Positions 46 to 11,447 of a stretch of 64,000 nt of DNA are shown here, piece after piece. The DNA comes from Escherichia coli (GTDB taxonomy: Bacteria > Pseudomonadota > Gammaproteobacteria > Enterobacterales > Enterobacteriaceae): assembly GCF_022846255.1 (NCBI RefSeq), contig NZ_AP025682.1, one strand, 5' to 3'. The translations under genes were made by a program, and so were the position numbers. Positions within the stretch are counted from its first letter, which is position 1, and each line of letters starts with the position of its first letter. Below the pieces are notes generated by a model, which was not told the origin of the DNA, ran no database searches, and saw nothing but the letters and a program-made list of their open reading frames with translations.

Positions 46-61
46 ACGCAAACGGTTTCGT
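46..61. promoter_or_regulatory. PurR operator (pur box) in the purL promoter
   Basis: 16-bp imperfect palindrome ACGCAAACGGTTTCGT about 75 bp upstream of the purL ATG, followed by TATAAT at 79-84; matches the PurR box consensus ACGCAAAC-GTTTGCGT. Confidence 0.55.
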
Positions 62-6906: not shown

Positions 6907-8230
6907 ACCTGCGCATTTATTACTGGTCGATGACGATCCGGGATTGCTGAAACTGCTTGGCCTGCGCCTGACCAGCGAAGGCTACAGTGTGGTCACGGCG
7001 GAAAGTGGTGCTGAAGGATTGCGGGTACTGAATCGCGAAAAAGTAGATTTAGTCATCAGCGACCTGCGGATGGATGAAATGGACGGTATGCAGCTGTTTG
7101 CTGAAATCCAGAAAGTGCAGCCGGGAATGCCAGTAATTATTCTTACCGCGCATGGTTCTATTCCTGATGCCGTTGCTGCAACACAGCAGGGCGTGTTCAG
7201 TTTTCTCACCAAGCCTGTCGATAAAGATGCGCTATATCAGGCAATTGACGATGCGCTGGAACAATCCGCGCCAGCCACCGACGAACGTTGGCGCGAGGCG
7301 ATTGTCACCCGCAGCCCGCTGATGCTGCGCTTGCTGGAACAGGCGCGGCTGGTGGCACAATCAGACGTTAGCGTTTTGATTAACGGCCAGAGCGGCACCG
7401 GGAAAGAGATTTTCGCCCAGGCTATCCACAACGCCAGCCCGCGCAACAGCAAGCCATTTATTGCTATTAACTGTGGCGCATTACCCGAGCAATTGCTGGA
7501 GTCGGAGCTGTTTGGTCATGCACGTGGCGCGTTTACTGGCGCTGTCAGCAATCGCGAAGGTTTATTCCAGGCGGCGGAAGGCGGTACGCTATTTCTTGAT
7601 GAGATTGGCGATATGCCTGCACCGTTGCAGGTCAAACTGCTGCGCGTGTTGCAGGAGCGTAAAGTGCGCCCGCTGGGCAGTAACCGCGATATTGATATCG
7701 ACGTGCGGATTATTTCTGCGACCCACCGCGACCTGCCAAAAGCGATGGCGCGTGGGGAATTCCGTGAAGATCTTTATTACCGCCTCAATGTTGTCAGCCT
7801 GAAAATTCCGGCACTGGCGGAGCGCACAGAAGACATTCCGCTACTGGCAAATCACCTGTTGCGCCAGGCGGCAGAGCGACATAAACCGTTTGTCCGCGCG
7901 TTCTCCACCGATGCAATGAAACGCCTGATGACTGCGAGCTGGCCGGGCAACGTGCGCCAGTTGGTCAACGTGATTGAACAGTGCGTGGCGCTGACATCAT
8001 CTCCGGTAATTAGTGATGCGCTGGTGGAGCAGGCGCTGGAGGGCGAAAACACGGCGCTGCCAACCTTTGTTGAGGCGCGTAATCAGTTTGAACTCAACTA
8101 TTTGCGTAAGCTGCTGCAAATCACCAAAGGCAACGTCACCCACGCGGCGAGAATGGCGGGGCGCAACCGGACAGAATTTTATAAACTGCTTTCCCGACAC
8201 GAACTGGATGCAAACGATTTCAAGGAATGA
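6896..8230 (+). CDS. glrR: sigma54-dependent response regulator GlrR/QseF
   Basis: Receiver domain (LLVDDDPGLL), AAA+ sigma54-activation domain with Walker A GQSGTGKE and the GAFTGA motif, C-terminal HTH; ATG at 6896 overlaps the qseG stop by 11 nt. Confidence 0.92.
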   Translation: MSHKPAHLLLVDDDPGLLKLLGLRLTSEGYSVVTAESGAEGLRVLNREKVDLVISDLRMDEMDGMQLFAEIQKVQPGMPVIILTAHGSIPDAVAATQQGVFSFLTKPVDKDALYQAIDDALEQSAPATDERWREAIVTRSPLMLRLLEQARLVAQSDVSVLINGQSGTGKEIFAQAIHNASPRNSKPFIAINCGALPEQLLESELFGHARGAFTGAVSNREGLFQAAEGGTLFLDEIGDMPAPLQVKLLRVLQERKVRPLGSNRDIDIDVRIISATHRDLPKAMARGEFREDLYYRLNVVSLKIPALAERTEDIPLLANHLLRQAAERHKPFVRAFSTDAMKRLMTASWPGNVRQLVNVIEQCVALTSSPVISDALVEQALEGENTALPTFVEARNQFELNYLRKLLQITKGNVTHAARMAGRNRTEFYKLLSRHELDANDFKE

Positions 8231-8673: not shown

Positions 8674-9864
8674 TCACAGCACCTTATGCGGGCCAAAGCA
8701 TTCGTAATGAATGTTTTCCTGTTTCACGCCCAGATCCACTAACTGTTTCGCGGCAAACTGCATGAAGCCAACCGGGCCGCAGAGATAGAACTGCATTGTC
8801 GGATCGCTGAACGCACCTTCCAGTTTGCTCAAATCCATCAGACCTTCGCTATCAAACTGACCTTTAGCGCGATCGGCTTCGCTCGGCTGACGATACCAGG
8901 TGTGTGCGGTAAAGCGTGGCAGTGATTGACCCAGTTCCTTAACTTCATCGGCAAAGGCGTGAACATTGCCATTTTCTGCCGCATGGAACCAGTTCACTTG
9001 TGCTGTGTGGCCTGCTTTTGCCAGCGTGTCGAGCATTGCCAGCATTGGCGTTTGACCGACACCGGCAGAGATTAACGTCACTGGTGTGTCATCTGCGACA
9101 GCCATAAAGAAATCACCTGCCGGAGCGACCAGTTTCACGACATCGCCAACATTGGCGTGATTGTGCAGCCAGTTGGATACCTGCCCGCCATCTTCGCGTT
9201 TCACCGCAATACGATAGCCTTTGCCATCCGGTTTGCGAGTCAAAGAGTACTGACGAATTTCCTGATGCGGGAAACCTTCCGGCTTCAGCCAGACGCCGAG
9301 ATATTGCCCCGGACGGTATTCTGCCACTGCGCCACCGTCGACCGGCTCCAGTTCGAAGCTGGTGATAAGCGCGCTGCGCGGTGTTTTAGCCACAATGCGG
9401 AAATCGCGAGTACCTTCCCAACCACCGGCTTTGCTGGCGTTTTCGTTATAGATTTCCGCCTCGCGATTGATAAATACATTAGCCAGGACGCCATAGGCTT
9501 TACCCCACGCGTCCAGCACTTCCTGCCCCGGGCTGAACATTTCGTCCAGCGTTGCCAACAGGTGTTCACCGACGATGTTGTACTGTTCCGGTTTGATCTG
9601 GAAACTGGTGTGCTTCTGCGCGATTTTTTCTACCGCTGGCAGCAGCGCAGGCAGGTTTTCAATATTGCTGGCGTAGGCGGCAATAGCGTTAAACAGGGCT
9701 TCACGTTGATCGCCATTACGCTGGTTACTCATGTTAAAAATTTCTTTGAGTTCTGGGTTATGAGTAAACATACGGTCGTAGAAATGGGCGGTTAACTTTG
9801 GTCCCGTTTCCACCAGTAAAGGGATGGTGGCTTTTACTGTAGCGATGGTTTGAGCGTCAAGCAT
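8674..9864 (-). CDS. hmp: flavohemoglobin / nitric oxide dioxygenase
   Basis: 396 aa; N-terminal globin domain ([17 protein letters not shown]) fused to FAD/NAD(P)H ferredoxin-reductase-like domain. Confidence 0.96.
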
Positions 9865-9883
9865 ATGGTCTTCCTTTTTTTTT

Positions 9884-9915
9884 GCATCTTAATTGATGTA
9901 TCTCAAATGCATCTT
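9884..9915. promoter_or_regulatory. NsrR-type operator in the hmp promoter
   Basis: AT-rich palindrome AAGATGCATTTGAGATACATCAATTAAGATGC (read on the minus strand) 20-50 bp upstream of the hmp start; resembles the NsrR consensus AAGATGyATTT...AAATrCATCTT. Confidence 0.55.
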
Positions 9916-10193
9916 ATAAAAAATAGCCCTGCAATGTAAATGGTTCTTTGGTGTTTTTCAGAAAGAATGTGATGAAGTGAAAAATTTGCATCACAAACCT
10001 GAAAAGAAATCCGTTTCCGGTTGCAAGCTCTTTATTCTCCAAAGCCTTGCGCAGCCTGAAGGTAATCGTTTGCGTAAATTCCTTTGTCAAGACCTGTTAT
10101 CGCACAATGATTCGGTTATACTGTTCGCCGTTGTCCAACAGGACCGCCTATAAAGGCCAAAAATTTTATTGTTAGCTGAGTCAGGAGATGCGG

Positions 10194-11447
10194 ATGTTAA
10201 AGCGTGAAATGAACATTGCCGATTATGATGCCGAACTGTGGCAGGCTATGGAGCAGGAAAAAGTACGTCAGGAAGAGCACATCGAACTGATCGCCTCCGA
10301 AAACTACACCAGCCCGCGCGTAATGCAGGCGCAGGGTTCTCAGCTGACCAACAAATATGCTGAAGGTTATCCGGGCAAACGCTACTACGGCGGTTGCGAG
10401 TATGTTGATATCGTTGAACAACTGGCGATCGATCGTGCGAAAGAACTGTTCGGCGCTGACTACGCTAACGTCCAGCCGCACTCCGGCTCCCAGGCTAACT
10501 TTGCGGTGTACACCGCGCTGCTGGAACCAGGCGATACCGTTCTGGGTATGAACCTGGCGCATGGCGGTCACCTGACTCACGGTTCTCCGGTTAACTTCTC
10601 CGGTAAACTGTATAACATCGTTCCTTACGGTATCGATGCTACCGGGCATATCGACTACGCCGATCTGGAAAAACAAGCCAAAGAACACAAACCGAAAATG
10701 ATTATCGGTGGCTTCTCTGCATATTCCGGCGTGGTGGACTGGGCGAAAATGCGTGAAATCGCTGACAGCATCGGTGCTTACCTGTTCGTTGATATGGCGC
10801 ACGTTGCGGGCCTGGTTGCAGCTGGCGTCTACCCGAACCCGGTTCCTCATGCTCACGTTGTTACTACCACCACTCACAAAACCCTGGCGGGTCCGCGCGG
10901 CGGCCTGATCCTGGCGAAAGGTGGTAGCGAAGAGCTGTACAAAAAACTGAACTCTGCCGTTTTCCCTGGTGGTCAGGGTGGTCCGTTGATGCACGTAATC
11001 GCCGGTAAAGCGGTTGCTCTGAAAGAAGCAATGGAACCTGAGTTCAAAACTTACCAGCAGCAGGTCGCGAAAAACGCCAAAGCGATGGTAGAAGTGTTCC
11101 TCGAACGTGGCTACAAAGTGGTTTCTGGTGGTACTGATAACCACCTGTTCCTGGTTGATCTGGTTGATAAAAACCTGACCGGTAAAGAAGCAGACGCCGC
11201 TCTGGGCCGTGCTAACATCACCGTGAACAAAAACAGCGTACCGAACGATCCGAAGAGCCCGTTTGTGACTTCCGGTATTCGTGTAGGTACTCCGGCGATT
11301 ACCCGTCGTGGCTTTAAAGAAGCCGAAGCGAAAGAACTGGCTGGCTGGATGTGTGACGTGCTGGACAGCATCAATGATGAAGCCGTTATCGAGCGCATCA
11401 AAGGTAAAGTTCTCGACATCTGCGCACGTTACCCGGTTTACGCATAA
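10194..11447 (+). CDS. glyA: serine hydroxymethyltransferase
   Basis: 417 aa from ATG 10194 (AGGAG Shine-Dalgarno 6 nt upstream); PLP-lysine motif [14 protein letters not shown]. Confidence 0.96.

Follow-up and report, generated by a model that had tools for sequence, protein, structure and literature searches.

How are two divergently transcribed genes, hmp and glyA, controlled from a single short gap, and which elements within it answer to which regulator? The gap lies in a stretch of 64,000 nucleotides (hereafter the window) that belongs to the E. coli chromosome: the 901 bases around the locus were matched in 5425 of 5426 complete E. coli genomes at an identity of at least 95%, where they are annotated as glyA and hmpA. 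The initial annotation had designated positions 9865-10193 as a divergent hmp-glyA control region, which was confirmed by the open reading frame (ORF) list and by MG1655 and RefSeq annotation; the interval is exactly the non-coding gap from the hmp ATG (9864, minus strand) to the glyA ATG (10194). The ORF list gives glyA from 10188, and its annotated start (MLKREMN...) is the ATG at 10194 in the MG1655 annotation. The hmp gene is delimited as follows.

9864 down to 8674, minus strand: hmp coding sequence (ORF list; RefSeq annotation of matching E. coli as hmpA, NO-inducible flavohemoprotein)
9862-9864, minus strand: hmp start codon (ORF list and RefSeq annotation)

Organisation and conservation of the hmp-glyA gap

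The gap measures 329 bp here as compared to 327 bp in K-12 MG1655, and in pairwise alignment the two differ only in the T run at 9875-9883, which is longer by two here, and by a SNP at 10052. The SNP, C here and T in MG1655, falls in an unconserved stretch between two of the regulator sites described below, MetR box B and the pur box.

By scanning for the Hmp protein with one genome per species, we collected 80 Enterobacteriaceae loci, of which 78 carry glyA divergently beside hmp, with a gap of 272-345 bp. We then aligned 79 gaps, including those of 78 other Enterobacteriaceae species, to obtain a conservation profile. The aligned gaps display discrete, footprint-like conserved blocks separated by variable stretches, and these blocks coincide with regulator sites:

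9893-9950: NsrR site and hmp promoter from the -10 through the spacer to the -35, with some 10 nt beyond it upstream
9978-10013: two MetR-like boxes
10040-10049: block outside the sites of the four regulators
10060-10103: pur box and -35 region
10111-10124: TATACT
10171-10193: glyA translation initiation region

Several other kinds of element were sought in the same interval. Consensus scans of the gap found no Fur box within 7 mismatches and no NarL/NarP 7-2-7 site, and a CRP site was rejected because its matches were weak, with 3 mismatches each. An Rfam scan of the leaders (E ≤ 1) returned only three sub-threshold chance matches, at 14.7-18.3 bits against gathering scores of 50-55; with nothing above the gathering scores, a structured RNA or riboswitch in the hmp or glyA leader was discarded. 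Mechanical ORF calling also listed four short frames in the gap (29-58 aa) that open with TTG or GTG; these were set aside because the conservation pattern in the 79-sequence alignment is block-like and not codon-like.

An NsrR operator over the hmp promoter

The initial annotation placed a long AT-rich palindrome next to hmp, in the form of a 32-bp dyad at 9884-9915. The stretch is indeed AT-rich, with a GC content of 0.31 as compared to 0.52 for the window, but it is not a palindrome: 12 of its 32 positions are self-complementary, an ordinary level met by 19.5% of the window's 32-mers, and a repeat search reported no inverted repeat at 9884-9915. What this search did report is a direct repeat, TGCATCTTA, at 9883-9891 and 9908-9916, which bounds the claimed dyad and from which its apparent symmetry stems. 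That 9884-9915 might nevertheless be a genuine AT-rich palindrome of at least 32 bp, with a role as a single long operator, in cruciform formation or as a structural element, would find some support in its base composition and in the GCATCTT present at both of its ends; these copies are, however, direct and not inverted. When the region was resampled with a first-order Markov model, 42% of the resamples contained a direct repeat of this length (9 nt); the left copy of TGCATCTTA (9883-9891) is kept in only 4 of the 79 aligned sequences, and outside register 9893 the NsrR position weight matrix (PWM) gives strongly negative scores. We therefore regard a long palindrome as scarcely credible.

The proposal that an NsrR-type operator lies over the hmp promoter was borne out, but for a shorter site:

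9893-9915, both strands: NsrR operator, an 11-1-11 imperfect inverted repeat, TTGATGTATCTCAAATGCATCTT (literature identity, PWM, conservation)

The 23-bp site reads TTGATGTATCT-C-AAATGCATCTT, with 7 of 11 arm pairs complementary, a degree of pairing within the window's top 1%, yet equalled or beaten by five other 23-mers of the gap. A check with an NsrR matrix had been suggested at the outset, and we scanned the whole window with a symmetrised matrix built from 25 distinct CFT073 sites, from which the hmp site was left out. With this leave-one-out matrix, 9893-9915 stands above background at 17.99 bits, rank 1 of 63,978 positions, the runner-up scoring 11.69; the same score was attained in 6 of 5000 shuffles of the gap and in 6 of 200 shuffles of the 64-kb window. 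The published list of 27 NsrR sites of 11-1-11 type in E. coli CFT073 gives TTGATGTATCTCAAATGCATCTT as its hmp entry, with a ChIP-seq peak (PMC5320621, Table 4). The two halves of the operator contribute unequally: the proximal half-site AAGATGCATTT (9905-9915, minus strand) agrees with the half-site consensus and, at 15.6 bits, is the best 11-mer in the window, while the distal half is weak and adds almost nothing to the score by the 11-bp half-site matrix. Across the alignment the NsrR site is found in 79 of 79 sequences, with scores of 17.2-30.5 bits and a median of 26; it begins 18-39 nt from the hmp ATG.

The elements of hmp expression lie around this operator.

9903, minus strand: hmp transcription start, +1 (published mapped start placed on the window sequence)
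9935-9940, minus strand: hmp -35 hexamer TTTACA (promoter scan; invariant in 79/79)
9911-9918, minus strand: hmp -10 region TATAAGAT, read as TAAGAT (9916-9911) or TATAAG (9918-9913) (promoter scan, literature)
9870-9876, minus strand: hmp Shine-Dalgarno AAGGAAG (read from the sequence)
9875-9883, minus strand: A9 homopolymer in the hmp 5' UTR, T9 on the plus strand (alignment with MG1655)

The experimentally mapped start is the A that follows TATAAGATGCATTTG and precedes GATACA in Fig. S3 of PMC1274295, a figure in which the hmp -35 hexamer is also conserved in Yersinia and Erwinia and a GGAAG/GGAGG is aligned upstream of enterobacterial hmp. Our promoter scan of the hmp side returned TTTACA, an 18-nt spacer and TAAGAT, and PMC3946193 gives the promoter as TTTACA-16-TATAAG, with the same -35 and an overlapping -10; ATCTTA, in the -10 region, is invariant in 74 of the 79 aligned sequences. 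Relative to the mapped start, the NsrR operator covers -12 to +11 and overlaps the -10 region, and this placement over the -10 and the start is the classic position of a repressor.

On the opposite (glyA, plus) strand, the promoter-like pair TTGATG-16-TATAAA at 9893-9920 overlaps the hmp promoter in antisense. It is named as the 'glyA' promoter in a genomic SELEX study (PMC3946193), about 270 bp upstream of the glyA ATG, and may represent either a divergent or antisense promoter or no more than a computational choice.

Downstream in the hmp leader, the A9 run stands directly upstream of the Shine-Dalgarno sequence, where K-12 has A7. The identical 80-mer 9845-9924, A9 included, is present in 4 of 5425 complete E. 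coli genomes, and the A9 leader may be a rare allele or a homopolymer sequencing error.

An FNR box nested in the NsrR operator

The initial annotation of the gap had overlooked a further site, which lies within the NsrR operator:

9893-9906, both strands: FNR box TTGATGTATCTCAA, within the NsrR operator's distal half (consensus scan)

This box agrees with TTGAT-N4-ATCAA at 9 of 10 positions and spans -3 to +11 of the hmp start; it is the one match in the gap, against 0.32 expected. At one mismatch or fewer, an FNR box is found in only 11 of the 79 aligned sequences, and a candidate FNR site in hmp was described as conserved only in E. coli and Salmonella (PMC1274295). Judged from these alignments, the hmp FNR site appears to be lineage-specific rather than absent. 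Control of hmp by FNR, MetR and NsrR, together with weak control by Fur, is described in PMC2884951 and PMC5320621, and FNR regulation of hmp also in PMC1274295.

The Escherichia operator has the lowest NsrR score of all 79 aligned sequences (17.2 bits against a median of 26), and the Klebsiella- or Enterobacter-type dyad reads ATGATGTATTTTAAATGCATCTT. Compared between species, the more mismatches a sequence has to the FNR consensus, the higher its NsrR score tends to be (Spearman 0.45, p = 3e-5, uncorrected for phylogeny), which suggests a trade-off between the two overlapping sites. The weak Escherichia operator and this correlation fit the view, put forward in PMC1274295, of an FNR site confined to close relatives.

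MetR-like boxes and further conserved blocks

Between the two promoters lie tandem boxes resembling the sites of MetR, a LysR-type regulator, at positions that the initial annotation did not locate.

9978-9990, both strands: MetR-like box A, the one nearer hmp, TGAAAAATTTGCA (TGAA-N5-TTCA with 1 mismatch; centre at -81 of the hmp start)
10000-10012, both strands: MetR-like box B, glyA-proximal, TGAAAAGAAATCC (2 mismatches to TGAA-N5-TTCA)

Counting matches to TGAA-N5-TTCA in the gap gave 4, as compared to 2.2 expected in shuffles, and is not above chance. Boxes A and B are each present with at most 2 mismatches in 78 of the 79 aligned sequences, and their start-to-start spacing is 22 bp, about two helical turns, again in 78 of 79. 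Work by Steiert/Stauffer and Lorenz/Stauffer reportedly describes a glyA control region with a PurR operator and tandem MetR sites. Two MetR sites in the hmp-glyA region are also stated in a passage of PMC5002191. We base the assignment to MetR on conservation and on this literature statement of two sites, not on consensus counting, and 9978-9990 and 10000-10012 are accordingly described as putative MetR sites. An inverted repeat flanking box A, TGTGATG/CATCACA (9968-9974 / 9989-9995), was set aside as its left arm is unconserved.

Three conserved blocks, at 9926-9950, 10040-10049 and 10171-10193, fall outside what NsrR, FNR, MetR and PurR explain. The second of these, AAAGCCTTGC, is situated between MetR box B and the pur box. 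The first can be entered as follows.

9926-9950, both strands: conserved block enclosing the hmp -35 and reaching upstream of it (conservation profile, motif scans)

Conservation here extends beyond the -35 hexamer, and the block reads weakly both as MetR-like (ATGTAAATGGTTCTT, 2 mismatches) and as NsrR half-site-like (AAGAACCATTT, 7.4 bits).

MetR box A is separated from the hmp -35 block by a spacer (9948-9977 in the window) whose length is bimodal across species: 41 have 31 nt and 23 have 9 nt. The 22-nt indel that separates the two classes corresponds to about two helical turns, and the short form is found in loci L023, L032, L041 and L066 among others. In many genera with the long spacer, an inverted repeat GTAAC-N14-GTTAC aligns to 9951-9975 (loci L009, L035 and L040 among others); E. 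coli lacks it, and in those genera it may be a binding site for another factor.

Alternative readings of the hmp operator

The assignment of 9893-9915 to NsrR was weighed against a reading in which the dyad is primarily an operator for FNR, of the CRP/FNR family, with NsrR secondary. The near-consensus match of TTGATGTATCTCAA and the published FNR repression of hmp speak for this reading, but a good FNR match is confined to 11 of 79 sequences in which the NsrR site is universal, and the best-conserved half of the dyad, AAATGCATCTT, lies mostly outside the FNR box. NsrR occupancy by ChIP-seq has moreover been recorded in CFT073 on the identical sequence, and PMC1274295 arrived at the same conclusion against a primarily FNR-directed dyad, which we consider highly improbable. 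The FNR and NsrR readings are in any case compatible, as the sites overlap and both are documented.

A second possibility is that NsrR at hmp also uses auxiliary 11-bp half-sites, in which case the longer element originally claimed would be a real multi-half-site operator. Two candidates exist, AAGATGCAAAA at 9880-9890 in the leader and AAGAACCATTT at 9938-9948 over the -35; both reach 7.4 bits, within the top 0.07% of the window's 11-mers, the latter lies inside a conserved block, the canonical distal half is weak in Escherichia, and a single 11-bp motif can suffice as an NsrR site (PMC5320621). Against this, about 0.4 such matches are expected by chance in 329 bp on both strands. The candidate at 9880-9890 is not conserved outside Escherichia and was rejected as a third half-site, its score being within chance expectation, while that at 9938-9948 shares bases with the invariant -35 hexamer and is no less conserved in species whose dyad is strong, so that its conservation needs no NsrR explanation. 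Auxiliary half-sites thus seem unlikely to us. Unlikely, too, is a combined proposal in which the Escherichia operator has been remodelled, its distal NsrR half turned into an FNR box and its function left to one consensus half-site with auxiliary half-sites, and in which, separately, 9926-9950 is a third MetR-type site. If the remodelling were true, repression of hmp would rest on the AAGATGCATTT-type consensus half plus 9880-9890 and/or 9938-9948; if the block were a third MetR-type site, its helical phase with box A would be kept, at 43 bp or 21 bp according to spacer class. We retain the 23-bp NsrR operator with its nested FNR box.

A complete pur box upstream of glyA

On the glyA side, the initial annotation had noted a half pur-box-like element. 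The sequence in question, AATCGTTTGCGT, is present at 10064-10075, but it constitutes the right-hand 12 nt of AGGTAATCGTTTGCGT, a complete 16-bp operator and not a half:

10060-10075, plus strand: PurR operator AGGTAATCGTTTGCGT, 16-bp pur box (ChIP-chip identity, PWM, conservation)

The match to ACGNAAACGTTTGCNT, the pur-box consensus of the LacI-family regulator PurR, extends over 16 bp and includes the central CG step. With a PurR PWM built without three listed operators (glyA, purL and guaB), AGGTAATCGTTTGCGT scores 21.5 bits and ranks 1 in the window, a score reached in 1 of 200 shuffles of the 64-kb window. In the alignment, a pur box is found in 79 of 79 sequences at 15.1-25.4 bits, always on the plus strand and 110-136 nt from the glyA ATG. 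Table 1 of PMC3159470 lists AGGTAATCGTTTGCGT as the glyA PurR motif of MG1655, with a ChIP-chip log ratio of 2.08 with adenine and 1.13 without, and the glyA PurR site is rated 'confirmed' in RegulonDB on the strength of footprinting and site mutation (PMC3548332).

Elsewhere in the window, the same scan recovered, as an internal positive control, the purL operator ACGAAACCGTTTGCGT (46-61, minus strand, at the left edge) at 21.45 bits. It also picked up TTGAAATCGTTTGCAT (8208-8223, minus strand), a weaker pur-box-like site of 12.2 bits that lies a short way upstream of glnB, for which regulation by PurR has been reported in the literature.

Candidate elements of the glyA promoter, and the translation start

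Downstream of the pur box, the TATACT that had been put forward as a -10-like element of glyA was found at 10117-10122 and is a conserved candidate.

10117-10122, plus strand: glyA -10 candidate TATACT (invariant in 72/79)
10084-10102, plus strand: glyA promoter-upstream block, -35 region, with TTGTCA at 10084-10089 (conservation)
10183-10196, plus strand: glyA Shine-Dalgarno AGGAG (10183-10187) and start codon (10194-10196) (sequence, conservation, MG1655 annotation)

TATACT has no good -35 at a distance of 16-18 bp, and the conserved TTGTCA lies 27 bp upstream; TTGTCA itself is invariant in 69 of 79 sequences, and the promoter scan read it as part of TTGTCA-16-AATGAT, in which AATGAT is poorly conserved. 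We infer both the start site that follows from TATACT and the -35 hexamer of glyA. Were glyA transcription to start near 10129, the pur box would span roughly -69 to -54, with the centres of the MetR boxes falling near -123 and -145. Directly before the glyA ATG, a near-invariant stretch of 23 nt (10171-10193) holds the Shine-Dalgarno sequence. The distances between elements on this side of the gap are all but fixed: MetR box B lies 48 nt from the pur box in 77 of 79 sequences, and the pur box 42 nt from TATACT in 72 of 79. Together with the constant spacing of the two MetR boxes, these distances make the glyA side architecturally rigid.

A model for the whole region

Taken together, this analysis leads us to conclude with high confidence that 9865-10193 is the textbook E. 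coli hmp-glyA divergent control region, with NsrR, FNR, MetR and PurR inputs. What this analysis itself supplies is the sites with their matrix scores, their conservation and their placement against the published hmp start; in vivo occupancy and the direction of regulation come from the literature. The region would comprise a pair of sigma-70 promoters, arranged back to back some 225 bp from each other and each under a repressor operator of its own, and two MetR boxes shared between them. On the hmp side, holo-[Fe-S] NsrR seated on the -10 and the start site would block RNA polymerase; nitric oxide (NO) would damage the NsrR cluster, causing NsrR to leave and hmp to be induced. The distal operator half would double as an FNR box, providing an anaerobic repression of hmp that NO can relieve. 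On the glyA side, PurR with hypoxanthine or guanine would bind the pur box just upstream of the -35 region and lower glyA expression, while MetR with homocysteine would activate glyA from the two tandem boxes, and the same sites would also influence hmp.

The initial annotation had named the right regulators, NsrR, MetR and PurR, and the NsrR and PurR sites each rank 1 in the window by PWM. Its statement that two unrelated regulons share one region held as regards the sharing, but not as regards their being unrelated, as MetR and homocysteine link the regulation of hmp and glyA (Membrillo-Hernandez 1998, as cited in passages of PMC2884951 and PMC5002191). The region is already known in detail: all four regulator inputs are published, and the NsrR and PurR operator sequences are identical to published ones. 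It is among the best-characterised divergent promoters in E. coli and carries little weight as a discovery; its value is that of a calibration case, in which a reading of sequence alone was right on the regulators, over-extended the dyad and under-called the pur box. The residual points, namely the NsrR/FNR trade-off, the phase-preserving 22-nt indel, the extra conserved blocks and the A9 allele, bear only on the fine-tuning of NO-stress gene expression.

Comparison with known systems

Within E. coli, the correspondence with described control regions is close. Both differences between this sequence and the K-12 hmp-glyA gap fall outside all regulator sites. The CFT073 hmp NsrR site has the same 23-bp sequence as 9893-9915, and in the K-12/CFT073 hmp promoter the operator for NsrR, a member of the Rrf2 family, with its overlapping FNR site, occupies the same position over the -10 and start as here. 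In the glyA control region of MG1655, as mapped by PurR ChIP-chip (Cho et al. 2011), the 16-bp pur box is identical to the one found here, and the two TGAA-N5-TTCA-like boxes stand 22 bp apart, as described for MetR sites.

Beyond E. coli, Citrobacter, Salmonella, Klebsiella, Enterobacter and others share the divergent gene order, the NsrR site, the pur box, the 22-bp MetR spacing, TTTACA and TATACT. Other Enterobacteriaceae genera differ in possessing a much better NsrR dyad (median 26 as compared to 17.2 bits) and in mostly missing the FNR box, and in 23 Enterobacteriaceae species, unlike in E. coli, the spacer from the hmp -35 block to MetR box A is shorter by a 22-nt segment.
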